Source: a virus
Taxonomy: Duplodnaviria > Caudoviricetes
IMG/VR virus record: IMGVR_UViG_3300037524_000450
Span: 1 to 64,000 of that record
DNA length: 64,000 nucleotides
Strand: one strand, 5' to 3'
Within the stretch, counting starts at the first letter, position 1; every line of letters starts with the position of its first letter. Made by a program: the position numbers and the translations under genes. Below the pieces are notes generated by a model. It was not told the origin of the DNA and did no database searches. It worked only from the letters and a program-made list of their open reading frames with translations. Shown in pieces: positions 12,705 to 34,930 of this stretch.

Positions 12705-14222
12705 ATGACTACCGAACTAATCGAAGTTATGCCCTTTGAGTACCAGATCATAGAATCTGCGAATGGGCGTTTTCGTGTTGAAGGAGTTTTTCAGCGGTCT
12801 GACATCGAAAATGCCAACAAGCGAGTTTATCCACGTACAATTTGGGAAAAAGAGCTAAAGGAACCCCGCGTACGGGAAGTTCTTGAAAGTCGGGCGATGT
12901 TCGGTGAACTCGATCACCCGTCCGACGGTAAGACTTCTTTAAAGCGGGTTTCACATTTAATAACCGGTCTTAACTTGCAGGAAGATGGTACTGTCACTGG
13001 CTCTGCCGAGATTCTACCTACACCGAACGGCCAAATTTTGAAGGCGCTATTTGAATCAGGCGCACAAGTTGGCATCAGTTCCCGTGGTTCGGGTAGCGTG
13101 AGTAACGGCGTTGTACAGGAAGACTTCAAACTGTCAACTTTTGACTTCGTCGCCCGCCCCTCTACTCCTGGGGCGGTTCCTAAGCCGGTTGGGGAAACTC
13201 AACGCAGCCGGTCTAGATTCTTCGAAGACGACGAGGCTAAGGATGAGCTTGTCACCGTTAACGACGATGAGTTCAACTCTTTCCTCAAGTCCCTAGAAGA
13301 CATAGACCTGTCGGTTTTGGAGACAGATAATAATGACCTCAATGCTCTGGCGCATGACATTATAACAGTGCATAACTTTGTAATGGAAAACGAAATGACG
13401 CCGGAAACGATCAATGAAGTGAGTGGTTATCTCGTTTCTTTAGGCACTGACTTAGGTAGAATGGCTGTTGATCATCCCGAACAGAGAACGATCATTGCAG
13501 ATCTACTAGAGAAGGTAGAACAAACACGCGGGGCAATCATTTCTAAGCCCCATAACCAAGTAACCGAGGAGGAAAATATGGACAAGCTTGAATTCATTAA
13601 GGCTCGTCTAAACGAATCGGCTGAGGATGAAGAGATGGTACTGCAGGAGACTGCGGCAAATCTTTACGATGAGCTGAATTCGCTTAGTGACGAGGAGCTT
13701 GTGACTATTGCCCAGCAGGTCGATAGTGACAGGCTTCGTGAGCACCTTGAGACCTTAAGCGATGACGAACTTATCGAAGCTGGAATCGAAACAGGCGTTC
13801 TTACCGAAGAGCTTGACGAAGCCGATGACGATGAGGAAGTTACCGTGCAGGATCTTTTGGATTATGTAGAGCATCTTGAAGGACAACTCCAGGAAGCCGA
13901 AGAGATCGTTGGTGAACTCGTTGGCCGTCTGGAAGAGTCTGGGGATGCTGACACTGCTCTGCTGAAGTATGAGGCCGCTCTTGAGATCATTCAGGAAACA
14001 GTTGGTCGCTTCCAATTGCTGCAAGAAGCCGTTGGTGGTGAGGATAGAGCTAACCAGCTCATGGAATCCTATGTTGCCAAGCTAGAAGCCGAAAATGACA
14101 CCGAGAGTAATGATATTAACGTAGTTGAAGGCGTTCTCAATGAGGACGGTTCGGCTGGTAACAAGATGAGCGAGTATCTCCGGTTAACCGAAGGTGCCCT
14201 AACCCGTCTTGGTGCTCGCTAA
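12705..14222 (+). CDS. Prohead protease (T4 gp21-like) fused to an acidic scaffold-like domain (505 aa)
   Basis: Motifs GVFQRSDIENANKRVYP, GELDHP, VSHLIT, VGISSRGSG, FDFVARPS. AGGAG SD at 12693-12697 sets the start at 12705 (track start 12591 is too early). Confidence 0.92.
   Translation: MTTELIEVMPFEYQIIESANGRFRVEGVFQRSDIENANKRVYPRTIWEKELKEPRVREVLESRAMFGELDHPSDGKTSLKRVSHLITGLNLQEDGTVTGSAEILPTPNGQILKALFESGAQVGISSRGSGSVSNGVVQEDFKLSTFDFVARPSTPGAVPKPVGETQRSRSRFFEDDEAKDELVTVNDDEFNSFLKSLEDIDLSVLETDNNDLNALAHDIITVHNFVMENEMTPETINEVSGYLVSLGTDLGRMAVDHPEQRTIIADLLEKVEQTRGAIISKPHNQVTEEENMDKLEFIKARLNESAEDEEMVLQETAANLYDELNSLSDEELVTIAQQVDSDRLREHLETLSDDELIEAGIETGVLTEELDEADDDEEVTVQDLLDYVEHLEGQLQEAEEIVGELVGRLEESGDADTALLKYEAALEIIQETVGRFQLLQEAVGGEDRANQLMESYVAKLEAENDTESNDINVVEGVLNEDGSAGNKMSEYLRLTEGALTRLGAR
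13578..14222 (+). CDS. Nested in-frame scaffold protein (214 aa) from an internal start in the protease gene
   Basis: GAGGAGG at 13566-13572, 5 nt before an in-frame ATG; product is very acidic and coiled-coil-like. Confidence 0.6.
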   Translation: MDKLEFIKARLNESAEDEEMVLQETAANLYDELNSLSDEELVTIAQQVDSDRLREHLETLSDDELIEAGIETGVLTEELDEADDDEEVTVQDLLDYVEHLEGQLQEAEEIVGELVGRLEESGDADTALLKYEAALEIIQETVGRFQLLQEAVGGEDRANQLMESYVAKLEAENDTESNDINVVEGVLNEDGSAGNKMSEYLRLTEGALTRLGAR

Positions 14223-27927: not shown

Positions 27928-29520
27928 ATGCCTTATTCTAAACGCCCTGAAATGTACCAAACATACATCCCTTTTGTAGAGATGTATATTAGAGGTATTG
28001 ACATTCTGCGCTCTCCTTCTGGGAAGCCTCGCAGTTTAATTTCTTTCTCGCATGATATCTATGCGGGTGCTGGTGGGTTTTGGACATTAGAAATTTTTGA
28101 CCCAGAATATGTTTCTGTGGAAGAACTTATGGTGTCCACACTTAACTACGCGGTTACCAAACCAGAAGATTCAGGCTATGGTTCTGACGAAGGTGGAGGT
28201 ACTGACGAAGAAGCGGTTAACGTATCGACTGCTCATTTCCGTTATGGGTATCTTGGTCATAACCAGCAAGAACGAGTAGTAAGTACTTCTCCTAATGGAG
28301 AAGAGTTTTTTTATGGCATGGTTCATTCTTATATCCCAACGTATGAAACTAATGGTACGAGATTAGTTATCCGTGGGGATTCTTCTGGTTCGATGTGGAG
28401 AAGGCACCCTAAAATCGAGGGAGTTTTTACAGGATTAAGTGTGTACCAAGTAATCGAAAAAATTTGTGAAGAACGTAAATGGACATTAGTCCCGTTAGGT
28501 ATGGGGGCTAATCCAGAATCCTCTTTGCCATTACAGAAACGACCAGAAGATTTTAAGAAGACAGATGCTTCATACGATACGACAGAAGAAGAATACCCGT
28601 CATTCACCATTAGAGAAGGGGAAGACCACGTACAATTCATTAATCGTTTGTGTTTAGAAGCACGCCCTAATGATTCTAAGTATGACGTTTTTATGTGCCG
28701 ACTAGAGTATAGAACGCTTAATGAAAAGCCTGAAACTAAACCTACGGGGTATTTGTATTTTGGCCCGGTTGACCATGTTACTCAAGAACCGGTTCGACAA
28801 TATATATACATGCGAGACCCTCGGTCAGACATAATCCAGTTTAGTAATAACGCTCAAGTTTGGGCTGCCCAAAGTACTGGGGCAGCAGGGGTTGTGTGTA
28901 CCTCTGAAGATGCTAAACTAGGCGATATACAAATGCGATATCTAGACGATATAAACCGTTATATGTATTATGATCGTGAGTCTCGGCCCCCTGTAACGTT
29001 TACTTCTTCTATGTTAGAAGATGTTGCTTACCCAGAAGGAGAGGTGGGTATTGAAGGGGCTGACGAAAAGAATGAAGGTGGTGGGTCAGACCCAAATCGG
29101 TTAAGTGTTAAAACAATGGCAAAAATGTCAGCTCCTGGGGCAGAACTACCTATTGCTACGGTTGATCGTCGTCAAGCTGACAGAGAAGCTATGCAGTATT
29201 GGCTTACGATGCAAAACTGGGTAACAAAAGGGAACTTACAAATCATTGGTGACCCTTCCCCAGAAATAGCCCCTGGTAACCTTATTACTGTTCTTGTGCT
29301 AGTCCCGCAAGGAGACCCGGAAGCGCAGAAATTAGCTTTTCATTGGACTTCGTCTGTGTGGCTAATTATTGGTGTTAACCACGAAATTCGTCCTGGGGAA
29401 ATGATAACGAACCTAGAACTAACCCGAACTGGACTTTCAAAGGGTGGTGCTACAACCAAGGCTGCATACAGAGCATTCCACAAAGCTTTAACTCCTGGGC
29501 AGTTGGAGAGGACAAGCTAA
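27928..29520 (+). CDS. Baseplate hub protein (gp27 / Mu gp44 / P2 gpD-like, 530 aa)
   Basis: Position between LysM and spike genes; C-terminal GNLQIIGDPSPEIAPG...WLIIGVNHEI...TNLELTR. Confidence 0.75.
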   Translation: MPYSKRPEMYQTYIPFVEMYIRGIDILRSPSGKPRSLISFSHDIYAGAGGFWTLEIFDPEYVSVEELMVSTLNYAVTKPEDSGYGSDEGGGTDEEAVNVSTAHFRYGYLGHNQQERVVSTSPNGEEFFYGMVHSYIPTYETNGTRLVIRGDSSGSMWRRHPKIEGVFTGLSVYQVIEKICEERKWTLVPLGMGANPESSLPLQKRPEDFKKTDASYDTTEEEYPSFTIREGEDHVQFINRLCLEARPNDSKYDVFMCRLEYRTLNEKPETKPTGYLYFGPVDHVTQEPVRQYIYMRDPRSDIIQFSNNAQVWAAQSTGAAGVVCTSEDAKLGDIQMRYLDDINRYMYYDRESRPPVTFTSSMLEDVAYPEGEVGIEGADEKNEGGGSDPNRLSVKTMAKMSAPGAELPIATVDRRQADREAMQYWLTMQNWVTKGNLQIIGDPSPEIAPGNLITVLVLVPQGDPEAQKLAFHWTSSVWLIIGVNHEIRPGEMITNLELTRTGLSKGGATTKAAYRAFHKALTPGQLERTS

Positions 29521-30896
29521 TGGCTGATATAAGACAAACCCCTGGTGACTTAGCCGTAGATTGGCGGCATGGTGAAGGTGTTCATCGCAGGGATAAACTC
29601 CAAATTATGCGAGGAGTTGTTGAGTACAACAGAGATCCAGACCACAGGGGACGGGTTATTGTCCGTGTTGCCGATGACGGCCTTGAGATGCATCCAATTC
29701 AGAAGAACACTGCGTTACAACCAACCTTCGGTTTACCGTGGGCGTCTCCTCTTTTTGGGTACGGCTCTGGTTCAGGGTTTGGTGCGTACACTGTTCCGCC
29801 TGTTGGTTCGCGTGTTTTTGTCATGTTTGAAAAAGGCCACCCAGACCAACGTTTGTACTTTGGTGGCTGGTCAGCTAATAGTCCTCGTCAAAAACGATAT
29901 GGAGTAACAAAGACGACACTAACACCCCCGACAAAAAAATCAACAATAGAACCCGGATTCAATGCAGAAGGCAACAAAGGGGGAGATTTTAAGTATCCTC
30001 CAAAGCCAACTCCTTACCAGGGCTACTGGATGGAAGAGCAGGGGCCTGAGAGGCCCCTAGAACTCGCGGAGATGATAGACCATACTCCGGACAGCCAGAT
30101 GTACTTCAAAACGCTCAAGGGGGCTTCTCTGCTCGTTAAAGAGCGGGATGAAGCCGAGGAGATGGTTCTTACAGATCGTTTGGGTGCTGAATTACGTTTT
30201 GAATCCAACACGCCTATTGTCGAGAACGGTGTGCTGCGGCGGAATCGTGTATCCAGCACGCAGCACGAGGCTATGAGCCTGGATAATCTAGCGCACTTTA
30301 AACATAGCGTTTCTTTGACTACAGCTAATCATGCCGGTCTCGAAATCGTGGCAACTACGAATGACGATGATTCTATCCTGCTCCAGACTCACCCGAAGGA
30401 GAATAGCCGAGGGTTGAGCCTTGGCGGTGGTGGTGGTTGAGGCGCTGGCCGGTTCGCAGGTCGCGGGCCTGGAAATTCTGTAAGTGAGGATCAAGAGGGC
30501 ATCATAAAGAATATCGAGCTTAAGAAAAGCCGTATGGCGCTCGATTTGGACCCTGGAGAACAACGTATCCGTCTCGTTTACAGAAATGACAACGAGAACT
30601 TGGGTGTCATAGACTTTGACATCATTAGTAAGCGACTGGAGATTAAAGGCTTAGATGATATTGACGTTGTCTCTGACGCTGACATCAGTCTTCAAGCTCC
30701 TAGGATCAGCTTACTTGGCGATGTAGAGATCAATGGAGAAATACGTCATTGGGGTGGCAAGAAGCTCACCTTTATGGACAACGACATGGAGCCATATGGG
30801 ACACAGACACGTAATTACTGGCCCTATGATAAGCCTATCGCTCCTTACCAGATTGGTAATGGGGGAAGCTACGTGGAGCCGAGGGAGTATAAGTAA
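29520..30896 (+). CDS. Baseplate central spike (gp5/VgrG OB-fold plus beta-helix), 458 aa with in-frame TGA at codon 307 (candidate selenocysteine)
   Basis: OB-fold motifs GVVEYNRDPDHRGRVIVRV, LPWASP, VPPVGSRVFVMFEKGHPD. Track ORFs 29520-30440 and 30534-30896 share a frame with only the TGA 30438-30440 between them; the second has no SD. Confidence 0.7.
30449..30472 (+). promoter_or_regulatory. Candidate bacterial SECIS element
   Basis: GGUUCGC-AGGUC-GCGGGCC 7-bp hairpin (30451-30469), extendable by 2 bp; the loop starts 17 nt after the UGA, as in the E. coli fdhF SECIS (GGUUGC-AGGUCU-GCACC). Confidence 0.6.
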
Positions 30897-33800
30897 TGGC
30901 TGAAGTTCAAGGAGATATCCTAGCTTTATACAAATACTACAGACTTTCAGACTATGAGAGTACTTGTTTAACTTTAAAGAATAAGATTCTTATAGAGTCT
31001 GCCATATGGTTTGAAGGCTATATGGATTTCTCCTTTAAGTGTTGCCGCTTTGAAAAGCCCATATACTGGGGCGTAGAGGGGGCACGACTTGAGGGGGATA
31101 CTAGAGGCACAGACGAGAACGATGACACGTTCCCTATTTATGGGTCCAACGGGTTAAACTTTGACACCTGTACGTTTACGCCTGATGCTCCAGTAACTAT
31201 AGAGGCAAACTGCGTTGCTCTTTTTATAAATTGTGTTTTTGAGGGAGACCAAGTTTTTACTATTGGGAACAATACTCGTGTAGAATTTATAGACTGTACA
31301 TTTAATTTGTGGCGTTTCGATATCACGGATTATTGTGACGTTCGTTTCCGTCGGTGTACTTGGACCTCTCCTCGTTACCATGCGACTATTGCTAATGGCT
31401 GCCAATGTACATACCATGATTGTGAATACAACATTGCTCAAACGTACGTGATGAACATTAGCCAAGATAGTAAAGTTATTATGACTGGGCATACGCCTGT
31501 AGACATTACTTCAGGTATTACAATGTTCATAGTGTCGGATAAATCTTCTTTGGATATGTATAATTTTGGTACACTAAGCACACCAGAATCTTGTTTAGAT
31601 ATTGATGACTCTAAGTATAAAGGTCGCAAAATAAAATTGATGTCTGCGGTTAAGGACACAGTTGTCGCAAATAATAAGGCTGAAGTATTTTTGAAAGAAG
31701 TTGACGAAATTATTTCAGTTTTAACTGCCCTAAAGTTTACAGATTCTCTTCTTCGTATGGAAGTAAATCAACTTACACAAGGAATAATTCATGGAATTGA
31801 GGCTTTTGACCAAAGTGAAATTATTGTTAAAGACTTTGACAAAATAATTGGAATAAACTTGGACGCGATTTGGGGGAGCGAGTCCAATTTTAGAGTGTTT
31901 GATGGTAACATCATTATGAACGAATCAGAAGCAGCCGGGATTTATTTAACCGGGGTTAGTAAATCTATATTTAAGAATATTTCAGGAAAGATTCAGGGCA
32001 TGTTTTATGGTATTAACATAAACGATCAAGCTGAAATATCCATTGATACTTGCCCTCTAATTTATGGCGTTATTTATTATGGTATTTTTTATAATAATCC
32101 TAAAATTGAATGCATAAATGTGGACACAATTAAGGGATTAATCCATGGTATTCATGGAGTAGACGGTACCCTTAGAATAAGAAACACCAGTATTGAGATC
32201 TATGGTGAAACTGAACATGGGATGGACATAACAACCACCCTGTATGAGTTTAAGGACATTGACTTTATTCACGGGCTGCTTAAAGGGGCGATCCTTACAA
32301 ACTGTAAGGGAGTCCTTAAAGATGTTAGAGAAATCCAAGGAGAAACAGAAGAGGGTTTAGTTCTTCTGGGCATGTCAGGCCCAACAGAATGGATCACCGT
32401 CCAGAAAATTTGGTCCCCTGTTATGCAGGGGCTTATCTTTACGGGAGACGCAGCGCAGAGTCGGTTTAGCGGTATCGAAGAAATTTACTCTCTAACATTA
32501 GAGGGAGTTATCTGGACACAATCTGGTGGTGTAGCGGTATTTAGCCACTTTGGCCATATCTACTCTATACCCGAGTCCGGGCTGGAAGTACATATTTCTG
32601 AAGGTGCCATTTTAGAAATGGATATTGGGGACAAGATCACTTCAGAAGAAAAACATGCTATTGAAGGTGACAACGCAGGTATTTTGGTCTTTACTAATAT
32701 TGACGAGATCAGTAGCCAAAATGGGGATATTGTAAAACTTACCGGATCTGGAGAAGACTCCAGCACCAAGTTTAAGACTATTCAGTTAATGAAAACAGAC
32801 CAAGCTCCTGACGATGCTATTAAAATTGCAGGCAATGGTGTTGTTGTATTACAGGATATCCCAGAAATAACTGTTAAAGAGGCTGCTGAATATGTTGTCA
32901 AGCTTAGTTCTTTGAACCCTGGTTATGGGAATATTAAAGTACTAGACTGCAAGTCTATAACTGCTGAAAAAGCAAAGGGCGGCTTAAAGGTTTCAGATGC
33001 ACTTATAACAGATGTTGTTGGTATAGACGAACCATGTGAGATTAAGTTAGAAGAAGCTGAAATAGCTGTTTTTGACGCATCTAGCACTAAACTATATTTT
33101 AGAAACTACTCTGAGATTTCTGCCACAGATGGAGAGGCAGATGGGGTTAAGCTTGATGACCTTAGTTTTTCTGGAAGTGAGATGGAGCTTTATAACATAG
33201 AGCTTATTAAAGCTAAGGGGCATGGTATTAATATCACTTCTTCGGGGAAAATTAGCCTAGTAGAAATTAAAGAAGTGGATGTGTCTGAGGGTGAAAAAGA
33301 CGCCTTGCACTACGAGGGGGAAGGGCACTTATACCTTCAGGGGCAGACTGTTCCAGTAAAACTAAGCGCAAAAGATGTTAGTAAAAATGCTATTTACGTG
33401 TTGGGCACTAGTATAGCCCAGGCAGAATTTGTTAATGTAGAGACACAAGCAGATAAAGGAAAGAGTATTTTTGAAAAAAGCGATCTTCTCCTTGTTCGTA
33501 ATAAGTTAAAAGGCGATGTATCGTTTACAGATTGTGTTGCTAGAAGTGTTCAAAATGTTTTCTCTCGGAGTATTGAACACGTAACAGCAAAGGTGGATTA
33601 TTATAACAGTGATATTACACTAGCTGTTGACCCTGGTGAAGAAACAGATTTTGTTGTTGACCCAGAAAGTGCTGTGTACTTATTTAGGTCAGATATAACA
33701 GGGACAGGAAAAGTAAGTTCTGATGGTGTCATACATGGGGATATAAATGAGTTTGCTGTCCCAACAGTAGAAGGCACAACAGGTGTTTGGTTGTTAAATG

Positions 33801-34930
33801 TGTGTTCCCTCGATTCTACTGTTGATATTTCAAATAGCGCGGCTATTTTTAATTTATGCACAAGTGCTCAAGCTACTTCTTTGTCAGCTAGTGCTGTTAT
33901 TGGTAATTTATGTACTTTTGAAGATGCCCTTGATATTCTTTCTGGCGGTTGTTCAGTAATGAATTTAGTCGAAGTTACTGGTAAATTAACTGCTGCAGGA
34001 GGCAACATTTTAAACGGGTGTAATACTGGGTCATTGGACGGTTCTCTTGCAGTTATTGCTAATGGCCTATTCTGCCACCAAACAACAGACCTTGCAGGTT
34101 CTACTGCCGCTATTTTAAACAAGTTTGAGACAGATGGCCCATTAGATGTGTCTTCAAAAAGTGCTTTAATCATTAACCAGGGTAAAATGGATAATACTAC
34201 TACATTAGCCGAGAATGTTGCTTTCATTGGTAACCAAATTGACAATGGCTTAACTAGTTTTGCTGTTGGTAGCTCTTCTGGCGTGTTTTTAAACGAAGGG
34301 ACTTTGGGGCCTGCTACAATTGCGGCTGAATCTGGTGTTGTGCTCAACTCTGTTGTGCTCGCAAATAATTTAACTGTGGCAGAGGATACAGGTATTATAT
34401 TTAATCATGTTGGTGGGGCGGCAGATGACCCTGACTACACTTTTGGAGAAAACAGCGGGATTTTAGCTAATTGGTTGCAGGGAAACAGTGTTACGCTTTC
34501 TGGCGGAGGATTTTTAGGACATACAGGGTTAGTTTCTGCTTATATGCAGCTTGAAGAGGATTTTACTCTAGCTACAGATACAGCCGCTATTATGGCTTCT
34601 CAAGTCGTGCGCGGTATTTGTACCTTACCTGAAAAAGCTAATATTATTGGTTGTGGTGTATTTTATACTGACACAGGGTATGAAAGTCCTACTGGAGCGG
34701 GGCACGCTATTCTTTTGCACGATTACCAAATGGGCGATTCGTCTAATCATGTCCTTGGCTTTAAGACAGGTATTGTTATTCGTGGCACAAACGATACTTC
34801 CCAGGTACTAATCAAAACTCCACACACCTCGGCTCAATGGGGTGATGGCACCTCTAGAGAAAATGTTCGTGTACGTGCAGACGAAGGAGTTATTCAACTT
34901 AACACAGTGTTAAATGATTACACATTTTAA
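30896..34930 (+). CDS. Large right-handed beta-helix tail protein (1344 aa)
   Basis: Continuous ~22-26 aa repeats (e.g. NCVF, DCTF, GIHGVDG, GNLCTF); acidic; coupled to the spike gene by TAATG. Confidence 0.7.
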   Translation: MAEVQGDILALYKYYRLSDYESTCLTLKNKILIESAIWFEGYMDFSFKCCRFEKPIYWGVEGARLEGDTRGTDENDDTFPIYGSNGLNFDTCTFTPDAPVTIEANCVALFINCVFEGDQVFTIGNNTRVEFIDCTFNLWRFDITDYCDVRFRRCTWTSPRYHATIANGCQCTYHDCEYNIAQTYVMNISQDSKVIMTGHTPVDITSGITMFIVSDKSSLDMYNFGTLSTPESCLDIDDSKYKGRKIKLMSAVKDTVVANNKAEVFLKEVDEIISVLTALKFTDSLLRMEVNQLTQGIIHGIEAFDQSEIIVKDFDKIIGINLDAIWGSESNFRVFDGNIIMNESEAAGIYLTGVSKSIFKNISGKIQGMFYGININDQAEISIDTCPLIYGVIYYGIFYNNPKIECINVDTIKGLIHGIHGVDGTLRIRNTSIEIYGETEHGMDITTTLYEFKDIDFIHGLLKGAILTNCKGVLKDVREIQGETEEGLVLLGMSGPTEWITVQKIWSPVMQGLIFTGDAAQSRFSGIEEIYSLTLEGVIWTQSGGVAVFSHFGHIYSIPESGLEVHISEGAILEMDIGDKITSEEKHAIEGDNAGILVFTNIDEISSQNGDIVKLTGSGEDSSTKFKTIQLMKTDQAPDDAIKIAGNGVVVLQDIPEITVKEAAEYVVKLSSLNPGYGNIKVLDCKSITAEKAKGGLKVSDALITDVVGIDEPCEIKLEEAEIAVFDASSTKLYFRNYSEISATDGEADGVKLDDLSFSGSEMELYNIELIKAKGHGINITSSGKISLVEIKEVDVSEGEKDALHYEGEGHLYLQGQTVPVKLSAKDVSKNAIYVLGTSIAQAEFVNVETQADKGKSIFEKSDLLLVRNKLKGDVSFTDCVARSVQNVFSRSIEHVTAKVDYYNSDITLAVDPGEETDFVVDPESAVYLFRSDITGTGKVSSDGVIHGDINEFAVPTVEGTTGVWLLNVCSLDSTVDISNSAAIFNLCTSAQATSLSASAVIGNLCTFEDALDILSGGCSVMNLVEVTGKLTAAGGNILNGCNTGSLDGSLAVIANGLFCHQTTDLAGSTAAILNKFETDGPLDVSSKSALIINQGKMDNTTTLAENVAFIGNQIDNGLTSFAVGSSSGVFLNEGTLGPATIAAESGVVLNSVVLANNLTVAEDTGIIFNHVGGAADDPDYTFGENSGILANWLQGNSVTLSGGGFLGHTGLVSAYMQLEEDFTLATDTAAIMASQVVRGICTLPEKANIIGCGVFYTDTGYESPTGAGHAILLHDYQMGDSSNHVLGFKTGIVIRGTNDTSQVLIKTPHTSAQWGDGTSRENVRVRADEGVIQLNTVLNDYTF

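Follow-up and report, generated by a model that had tools for sequence, protein, structure and literature searches.

An in-frame UGA and fdhF-like hairpin in the central-spike gene of an uncultured myophage: a candidate site of selenocysteine insertion

We analysed a 64,000-nucleotide stretch of viral DNA (the window) and found that its gene at 29520-30896 (+ strand), the gp5/VgrG-like central-spike gene of a large, uncultured wetland myophage of the T4 superfamily, is interrupted by an in-frame TGA at 30438-30440. Comparison of four diverged lineages indicates that this UGA and the fdhF-like hairpin that follows it are conserved and under selection, and that the downstream half of the gene, for which no separate start is conserved, is translated in frame 0. 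Because the UGA and the hairpin have been kept in all four lineages, completion of the spike by programmed recoding of the UGA is the most likely reading of these sequences, and the recoding probably inserts selenocysteine (Sec).

The spike gene and its in-frame UGA

The upstream part of the gene (codons 1-306; 29520..30437) carries an OB-fold domain at residues 31-116, which is recognised by Pfam PF04717 Phage_base_V (E 6.3e-7, 30.1 bits, cut-off 23.8), and it also matches the PHROG 430 baseplate hub family (E 4.8e-13). Foldseek returned weak matches to the spike, all of them central spikes, with E-values of at least 1e-3. The downstream part (30441..30896; 151 codons plus TAA) comprises the rest of a linker and a beta-rich C-terminal domain and shares homology with the C-terminal third of continuous relatives (alignments A1/A4). 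In an AF2 monomer model that was weak overall, residues 337-410 were beta-rich with pLDDT values of 73-85. Trimerisation of central spikes is textbook knowledge, and the C-terminal part gave a weak match to the beta-helical trimerisation family PF21930 (19.3 bits, below the cut-off of 27). A DNA search of deposited phages with the spike region gave no match, and protein matches were distant and restricted to the N-terminal part.

The genomic setting is that of a contractile-tail baseplate module, with CIS_tube, gp53-like, gp25-like, gp6-like wedge and sheath genes nearby. The end of the spike gene is coupled via TAATG to an ORF of 1344 aa (30896..34930, + strand), which probably extends the spike; the same arrangement recurs in L002/L004-type contigs. 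The viral fragment as a whole is 82.8 kb long, about 38 % of the genome, and the nearest cultured relatives of the phage (35-37 % capsid identity) infect Bacillota.

The initial annotation had described a spike ORF that stops at a TGA with an open frame beyond it. Indeed, the TGA is codon 307 counted from 29520 and is followed by 151 codons up to the TAA at 30894-30896. A base-call check, which that annotation had proposed, was provided by a contig from an independent DNA run (X3, covering 29571-30566) and one from an RNA library (X4, covering 30356-30506), both of which matched the window without a single difference, indel or joint. Roughly 10 contigs, drawn from several studies, carried the same TGA, and since all of these sources agree, it is no error. 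The RNA-library contigs, which have low depth and may include DNA, likewise showed neither joints nor differences indicative of splicing or editing of the region.

The UGA occupies the same codon in four lineages, namely that of the window, L001, L002/L004/L005(=L003) and L006, whose C-terminal parts are 63-88 % identical. Its immediate surroundings are equally constant: GGU-GGU-GGU-UGA and GGU-UGA-GGY are invariant in 4/4 lineages. A nonsense mutation or a sequencing error, both of which had been listed as alternatives, are excluded because the TGA recurs across independent runs and the four diverged lineages. Gene callers stop the spike at this codon, giving products of 305-308 aa in the relatives. 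As every database copy is truncated in this way, recoded phage structural genes would be systematically mis-annotated.

The candidate Sec codon lies within a lineage-specific in-frame insertion of 33 codons, RGLSLGGGGG-UGA-GAGRFAGRGPGNSVSEDQEGII (30408..30506, + strand), which was delimited by protein alignment A1, GC content and the AF2 model and is common to the window, L001, L002-L005 and L006. Approximately 35 homologues of 420-445 aa run continuously across this point without the insertion (alignment A1). The core of the insertion has 70 % GC and its flanks 44-48 %, and residues 291-337 had AF2 pLDDT values of 33-45. It is predicted to form a disordered Gly-rich linker between two beta-rich domains, with no recognisable redox or metal site. 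No Cys homologue was found at the UGA position, as the roughly 35 homologues miss the whole insertion; the Sec/Cys pair, the usual certificate of a selenoprotein, is therefore absent because the UGA sits in a clade-specific insertion. The comparison of homologues suggested by the initial annotation thus turned out both ways: the UGA and the hairpin were kept in four lineages, but neither TGC/TGT nor any relative with a sense codon was found at this position.

We also searched with degenerate DNA patterns in which the UGA slot was left free. These gave 0 matches in a viral contig set and, in a metagenome scan, a single contig identical to the L002 lineage. Five matches in GTDB were chance similarities to Gly-rich or high-GC DNA without a TGA, and therefore provided no prophage and no lead to a host. 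Separately, a foreign GC-rich contig was seen to resemble 30432-30472.

A SECIS-type hairpin behind the UGA

A hairpin directly 3' of the UGA had been proposed from the window alone, and we found it as described. The element, GGUUCGC-AGGUC-GCGGGCC (30451-30469, + strand), has a 7-bp stem formed by 30451-30457 and 30463-30469 and a loop, AGGUC, at 30458-30462, with a UGA-to-loop distance of 17 nt. The GGUC apex (30459-30462) falls at +22 to +25 counted from the U of the UGA. The asserted likeness to fdhF held against the real E. coli K-12 gene, which reads UGA CAC GGC CCA UCG GUU GCA GGU CUG: GCA GGU are codons +6/+7, and G22 G23 U24 C25 lie at the hairpin apex, the same as in the window. These four nucleotides cap the hairpin invariantly in 4/4 lineages.

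Pairing in the stem was retained in 27 of 28 cells among the four distinct sequences. The changes include one G-C to C-G double change, which costs an Ala to Pro replacement, and one U.G to U-A change between lineages. The stem covariation score was reached by 134 of 500 shuffles (n = 4 distinct sequences), so that covariation alone is not significant, because there are only four distinct sequences. The folding energy compared with shuffles is ordinary for the GC content (z -0.6 to -1.4). In the four lineages, 10-13 nt separate the UGA from the start of the hairpin. A lower stem is present in L006, the other lineages being without it. An Rfam search matched nothing relevant; to our knowledge, Rfam has no bacterial SECIS family.

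Constraints have been formulated for bacterial SECIS elements, namely an apical loop of 3-9 nt with G in the first two loop positions, an upper stem of 4-16 bp, a UGA-loop spacing of 16-37 nt and an MFE <= -7.5 kcal/mol (PMC13188914). In the bSECIS screen that the initial annotation had recommended, all four elements passed, with loops of 3-5 nt, stems of 5-8 bp, spacings of 17-18 nt and energies of -7.7 to -11.1 kcal/mol. Across the contig, 33 of the 2534 TGA triplets (1.3 %) pass the same constraints, and only the one at 30438 is flanked on either side by a long open frame on the coding strand. Another passing TGA, at 13201 on the - strand, was discarded as it lies antisense to the head protease gene.

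In the three closer lineages, synonymous sites are frozen from codon -7 to codon +12 (Fisher p = 0.008 to 0.0003). By this measure, the constraint is of the kind that an RNA signal inside an ORF would impose.

Such a signal might act without SelB. The stop could be passed by near-cognate read-through, or by a hop of peptidyl-tRNA-Gly from GGU over the UGA to GGY, with the poly-Gly and the hairpin slowing termination; the outcome would be a selenium-free full-length spike and an excess of the short form. The conserved UGA and the frame-0 translation downstream of it fit this explanation equally well, matched Gly codons flank the stop in GGU-UGA-GGY in all four lineages, and in a flexible linker with no Cys homologue any residue would do. 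However, it leaves unexplained why the GGUC apex stays invariant at exactly the fdhF distance amid change in the stem. A hairpin 10-13 nt past the A-site codon also has the geometry of a SECIS; frameshift stimulators are spaced at 5-9 nt, and Sec insertion is the only case known to us of bacterial UGA read-through stimulated by a structure. On balance, we regard SelB-independent recoding as unlikely.

Translation beyond the UGA

In the 31 codons from the UGA to the first canonical start, variable sites are distributed 10/11/24 over the three codon positions (P = 0.0045). The same stretch is free of indels, and its frame 0 has no stops, the other frames having 1-2 each. All four lineages have exactly 151 codons after the UGA. 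Between the window and L001, the C-terminal part shows 27 synonymous and 8 non-synonymous differences, a ratio which indicates that it is under purifying selection.

These patterns bear on whether the interruption could be an artefact or a sign of decay, be it an error of sequencing or assembly, a nonsense mutation that arose recently in a dying gene, or a pair of compensating frameshifts through the +1 frame. The last of these had been raised on the ground that the +1 frame over the UGA is protein-like, and it does read VVVVEALAGSQVAGLEIL up to a stop. Nevertheless, compensating frameshifts are excluded: the substitutions are synonymous in frame 0 but non-synonymous in +1, and the +1 frame ends at differing places across the lineages. 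Together with the recurrence of the TGA in independent runs and diverged lineages, and with the selection acting on the C-terminal part, this makes artefact or decay the least credible of the explanations considered, and we attach next to no weight to it.

A different possibility is that translation stops at the UGA and that a weak or non-canonical start further downstream serves for separate synthesis of the C-terminal domain, the two chains then associating and the hairpin serving mRNA stability or pausing. As the initial annotation had stated, the downstream part lacks an SD; none precedes the first downstream ATG, at 30534. Every lineage does have some in-frame ATG or TTG 27-37 codons past the UGA, and the predicted beginning of the structured C-terminal domain, about residue 337, is close to codon 339, an ATG in the window. 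Moreover, T4 gp5 tolerates a break in the corresponding linker, where a proteolytic cut yields gp5* and gp5C. Against this, the candidate starts lie at differing codons across lineages (codon 339 is GTA in L002 and L006), and no start codon or SD after the UGA is conserved across the four lineages. The candidates are also 80-110 nt from the stop, which is too far for ordinary coupling, and the stretch before them bears the signature of frame-0 coding, with no indels or stops and with the family-wide KNxEL motif. Finally, a split gene offers no reason for an invariant GGUC loop at +22 to +25. We therefore consider a split gene improbable.

The use of stop codons elsewhere in the phage addresses whether UGA is simply a sense codon. 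Among 56 + strand genes, 41 end in TAA, 12 in TAG and 3 in TGA. The statement in the initial annotation that nearly every other gene ends in TAA or TAG is thus correct for the late genes, but not for the - strand ORFs beyond the window, of which about half end in TGA; TGA is a common ordinary stop in the early genes of this phage. Pfam found no matches for 10 of the - strand early ORFs and so gave no confirmation that they are genes. An 801-codon stop-to-stop frame on the - strand (about 79.4-81.8 kb) that contains an in-frame TGA was set aside, being of low complexity and not gene-like.

The spike would also be read through if the host or phage translated every UGA as Gly (code 25) or Trp (code 4), or if a phage suppressor tRNA were encoded in the 62 % of the genome that is unsequenced. 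The position of the UGA within a run of Gly codons (GGGGG-UGA-GAG) would suit code 25, TGA stops are rare in late genes (3/56), and with a genome that is only about 38 % complete a suppressor tRNA could have escaped notice. However, late genes totalling approximately 60 kb contain a single in-frame TGA, TGA is absent from the 946 Gly codons that were counted, and reassignment sits badly with the frequent TGA stops on the - strand. Global reassignment was accordingly rejected, as long ORFs are intact under table 11 with one in-frame TGA and many early ORFs ending in TGA; it would, in addition, need no conserved hairpin. Searches of the 82.8-kb fragment found no tRNA of any kind; nor did they find tRNA-Sec, selB or other sel genes. 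An alternative code or suppressor tRNA is thus a very unlikely explanation.

A model of selenocysteine insertion and its relation to known systems

The results above suggest a model in which the UGA is decoded as Sec. In one clade, a 33-codon GC-rich insertion has entered the linker that joins the N-terminal hub domains to the C-terminal beta domain, bringing with it the UGA and, 10-13 nt later, a short GGUC-capped hairpin that most likely acts as a bacterial-type SECIS. SelB-GTP-Sec-tRNA(Sec) of the host, the presumed decoder, would bind the hairpin at the mRNA entrance and compete with RF2 at the UGA, where the invariant poly-Gly ahead of the codon may slow release. Insertion of Sec at position 307 would let the ribosome continue to a full-length spike subunit of 458 aa; termination by RF2 would give a product of 306 aa without the C-terminal domain. 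In our judgement, this specific scheme, with SelB/SECIS-directed Sec at residue 307 and a terminated short form, stands evenly balanced between being right and being wrong.

An extended version of the model is more tentative, and we lean slightly against it. The insertion might be a mobile UGA-SECIS cassette in the spike linker, such that full-length spike and infectious particles would be made only in a selenium-replete, Sec-competent host and the efficiency of insertion would set the ratio of short to long forms; three Sec residues around the three-fold axis could be a metal or redox site. Any role of Sec itself, or of the short/long ratio, would be of this conditional kind. The further ideas that Sec cross-links the spike trimer and that the gene is a selenium-gated assembly switch are speculation.

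Established cases of Sec insertion are cellular oxidoreductases and, among animal viruses, a few genes for glutathione peroxidases. Our full-text literature search found no paper describing UGA recoding with a SECIS in the production of a phage particle protein. If the model is correct, phages exploit the SelB system of their hosts for a structural gene, and a UGA-SECIS unit can arise through insertion at a position not occupied by Cys, which bears on the origin of new selenoproteins. Infectivity could then hinge on the selenium supply and on the Sec trait of the host, a new determinant of host range or conditional assembly. Even if SelB is not the decoder, conserved programmed UGA recoding in the spike gene of a dsDNA phage would be a new case of recoding.

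The closest parallel is with bacterial selenoprotein genes whose in-ORF SECIS is read by SelB, E. coli fdhF being the prototype, which share with the phage gene the in-frame UGA, a hairpin at once inside the ORF and a GGUC apex at the identical distance; as in bacterial SECIS genes generally, the downstream codons appear constrained by RNA structure. In contrast to those genes, which encode oxidoreductases, the phage gene encodes a virion structural protein, and its UGA lies in an insertion that is Gly-rich and predicted to be disordered, for which there are no homologues containing Cys. The phage stem also differs from that of fdhF in having tandem U.G pairs in place of the bulged U, and in that its lower stem is not conserved.

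Two recoding systems of phages offer partial parallels. In the RNA phage Q-beta, read-through of the coat-gene UGA by tRNA-Trp, for which no dedicated hairpin is needed, yields A1, a minor but essential virion protein. Here too the gene is structural, and leakage at its UGA would yield two products with a common N-terminus, the short one major and the long one minor, but the present phage is a dsDNA myophage with a conserved SECIS-like hairpin after the UGA. Bypassing in T4 gene 60, and short hops of the same type, resemble our case in the Gly take-off codon at the stop, the matched Gly codon downstream (GGU again at +7) and the nearby hairpin. However, the hairpin of gene 60 includes the take-off codon and the gap of 50 nt is untranslated, whereas the hairpin described here lies downstream and, in frame 0, the only changes in the codons that follow the UGA are synonymous.

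Finally, the protein itself is comparable with the spikes T4 gp5, T6SS VgrG and P2 gpV, with which it shares an OB-fold Phage_base_V domain, a beta-rich C-terminal part and a position in the baseplate module. Unlike these, it has no lysozyme domain and is followed by a coupled ORF of 1344 aa. The interruption falls in the interdomain linker, which is where T4 gp5 is cut, but in the phage described here that linker carries a UGA and a hairpin rather than a cleavage site.

An interrupted spike gene in a T4-superfamily myophage

The spike ORF starts at 29520 on the plus strand and meets a TGA at 30438-30440 (codon 307), beyond which the frame is unchanged and open for a further 151 codons, to a TAA at 30894-30896. 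Directly downstream of the TGA lies the hairpin GGUUCGC-AGGUC-GCGGGCC (30451-30469, plus strand), so that the sequence agrees in all three features with the initial annotation. The spike TAA overlaps the ATG of a 1344-aa plus-strand ORF (30896-34930) in a TAATG coupling; this ORF has no Pfam match, and the coupling recurs in contigs of the L002/L004 type, relatives in which the large ORF has 1336 aa. The base call at the TGA is sound, since a contig from an independent DNA run (X3) has no differences from the window over 29571-30566, and one from a metatranscriptome (X4) has no differences, indels or joints over 30356-30506. Together with the presence of the same TGA in relatives, these contigs exclude splicing as well as the sequencing error and nonsense mutation that had been listed as alternatives. 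Metagenomes from wetland, sediment and soil contain the window's DNA.

Pfam assigns residues 31-116, above its cut-off, to the Phage_base_V OB domain found in gp5/VgrG/gpV spikes; they also match PHROG 430 (baseplate hub). After the TGA there is a weak match to a beta-helical trimerisation domain. The neighbouring genes encode a CIS tube protein, gp53-, gp25- and gp6-like wedge proteins, a sheath and a gp23-like capsid protein. The source is a large T4-superfamily myophage, represented by an 82.8-kb viral fragment (estimated completeness 38 %) that opens with the 64-kb window; its closest cultured relatives infect Bacillota (capsid identity 35-37 %). An AF2 monomer model (pLDDT 58) has beta-rich regions at 190-290 and 337-410 with a disordered joiner at 291-337, and its Foldseek matches, though weak, are all central spikes. 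Cys is absent from the whole 458-aa read-through product (29520-30896), and a family-wide GWC motif is PWA in the window's spike; the spikes of the relatives L001 and L002 do contain Cys, at other sites.

The 56 plus-strand genes end in TAA (41), TAG (12) or TGA (3). Stop-codon use differs sharply between modules: TGA ends about 14 of the 27 minus-strand ORFs of at least 100 aa in the 64-82.8 kb part of the contig, as against 3/56 plus-strand late genes. The minus-strand genes are predicted ORFs, and the 10 from this region that were searched have no Pfam match.

Conserved UGA and frame-0 translation downstream

A search of 5.8 billion proteins returned about 35 homologues, each 420-445 aa long and continuous across both halves (identity 40-60 %). 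Compared with these, the window has an insertion, in frame and about 33 codons long, which holds the UGA (RGLSLGGGGG-UGA-GAGRFAGRGPGNSVSEDQEGII), with a core of 70 % GC between flanks of 44-48 % GC. The two closest matches (81 % and 76 %) end at 305 and 308 aa, with the common ending ...NSRGLSLGGGGG. Relatives were obtained as DNA from Logan (L001), ENA (L002, L004) and JGI (L003, identical to L005); the lineage comprising L002, L004 and L003 recurs in at least eight contigs, and a fourth, more distant lineage (L006) was traced via a separately called C-terminal ORF (63 % identity). All relatives fetched have TGA at the identical codon, followed by exactly 151 codons.

In runs X1 and X3, another, GC-rich organism contributes a contig of about 510 nt that agrees with the window at 36 of 41 positions (30432-30472) and has flanks unrelated to the phage. 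Translated in the +1 frame of the phage, or antisense to it, the contig resembles an ordinary high-GC protein; judged by composition, it is not a selenoprotein gene in frame 0, because GC3 in that frame is only about 42 %. The contig may have donated the insert, or the match may be due to chance (rough chance expectation 1e-3 to 1e-2).

Over the 31 codons from the UGA to the first canonical start, variable sites are distributed 10/11/24 by codon position (P = 0.0045), and frame 0 is stop-free in every lineage, with one or two stops in each of the other frames and no indels. Read in frame 0, substitutions within the hairpin region are synonymous; read in the +1 frame, they alter the amino acid. 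This excludes the compensating frameshifts that the initial annotation had entertained. The three closer lineages show frozen synonymous sites from codon -7 to codon +12 (Fisher p = 0.008-0.0003), and purifying selection acts on the C-terminal part. A split gene proper, whose C-terminal domain has its own start, is unlikely: it does not account for the coding signature that precedes the candidate starts, and no initiation signal is conserved. The ATG at 30534 in the window is GTA in L002 and L006; among the lineages compared, candidate starts downstream of the UGA fall at different codons and none is preceded by an SD. Comparative sequence evidence thus shows that the UGA is conserved, that a SECIS-type hairpin follows it and that the sequence downstream is translated in frame 0.

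A hairpin at the fdhF distance

The sequence GGU GGU GGU UGA GGY is invariant in all four lineages, as is the hairpin apex, G22 G23 U24 C25 counted from the U of the UGA. The stem varies, from GGUUCGC/GCGGGCC in the window to UUCCCC/GGGGA in L006, and includes two changes: one G-C to C-G double change, which replaces Ala by Pro, and a single U.G to U-A change. Pairing in a common register is kept in 27 of 28 cells; with only four distinct sequences, this covariation alone is not statistically significant. Read-through independent of SelB, or a hop across the UGA between its matched flanking Gly codons, appears improbable, as it would not explain an invariant GGUC apex at the fdhF distance amid a changing stem.

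The likeness to fdhF, the E. coli formate dehydrogenase H gene, was confirmed: the K-12 gene reads UGA CAC GGC CCA UCG GUU GCA GGU CUG..., placing its GGUC tetraloop at positions 22-25, as in the phage. In L006 (76-111), GGUGCU right after the UGA can pair with AGCACC beyond the hairpin, giving a lower stem and internal loop like those of the complete fdhF SECIS, a pairing that is not possible in the other three lineages. The bacterial SECIS model specifies a loop of 3-9 nt whose first two positions contain G, then G or U, an upper stem of 4-16 bp, a UGA spacing of 16-37 nt and an MFE <= -7.5 kcal/mol (PMC13188914). All four phage elements fall within these limits in a no-bulge implementation that is stricter than the published model: fdhF itself is rejected by this implementation owing to its bulge. 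Only 33 of the contig's 2534 TGA triplets pass, and among them only the spike UGA is flanked on both sides by long open frames on the coding strand. An Rfam search returned nothing relevant.

Outside the window, at 75436 (plus strand) of the whole contig, lies the sole other TGA with a GGUC tetraloop at +22 to +25 and a stem of 5 bp or more (UGAGUCGUUGAGUGCGUAGUUGGUCAACUAU). Because its open frames are short and the early genes run on the other strand, it probably belongs to the intergenic hairpins.

Decoding of the UGA and comparison with bacterial SECIS elements

A code in which TGA is sense is excluded: about 60 kb of late genes contain one in-frame TGA, none of 946 Gly codons counted is TGA, and TGA ends about half of the minus-strand ORFs. 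SelB/SECIS-directed insertion of Sec accounts for all features. We nevertheless consider it an evenly balanced proposition, because there is no Cys homologue, and the Sec machinery would be that of a presumed host. None of the roughly 35 continuous homologues, which lack the insertion, has Cys at the UGA position, because the UGA lies in a clade-specific insertion inside a disordered Gly-rich linker. The 82.8-kb fragment (about 38 % complete) contains no tRNA, tRNA-Sec or selB.

Under Sec insertion, the ribosome would pause with the UGA in the A site and a nascent end of Gly-Gly-Gly, after which peptide release is slow. SelB-GTP-Sec-tRNA(Sec) would sit on the GGUC loop, immediately outside the mRNA entrance, and compete with RF2; insertion would produce a 458-aa spike subunit carrying Sec307, and termination a 306-aa product lacking the C-terminal domain. 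Sec insertion in E. coli has an efficiency of only a few per cent, which would suit a protein of which each virion needs three copies. A chemical role for Sec307 is speculative.

Full-text literature searches found neither a phage structural selenoprotein nor UGA recoding in a baseplate gene. The phage spike has no homologue with Cys aligned to the UGA; for this reason, and with the Sec machinery of the host presumed, we describe a SECIS-type recoding signal and not a proven selenoprotein gene. As read from its sequence, the phage element formally resembles the bacterial in-ORF SECIS and is predicted to work like it.
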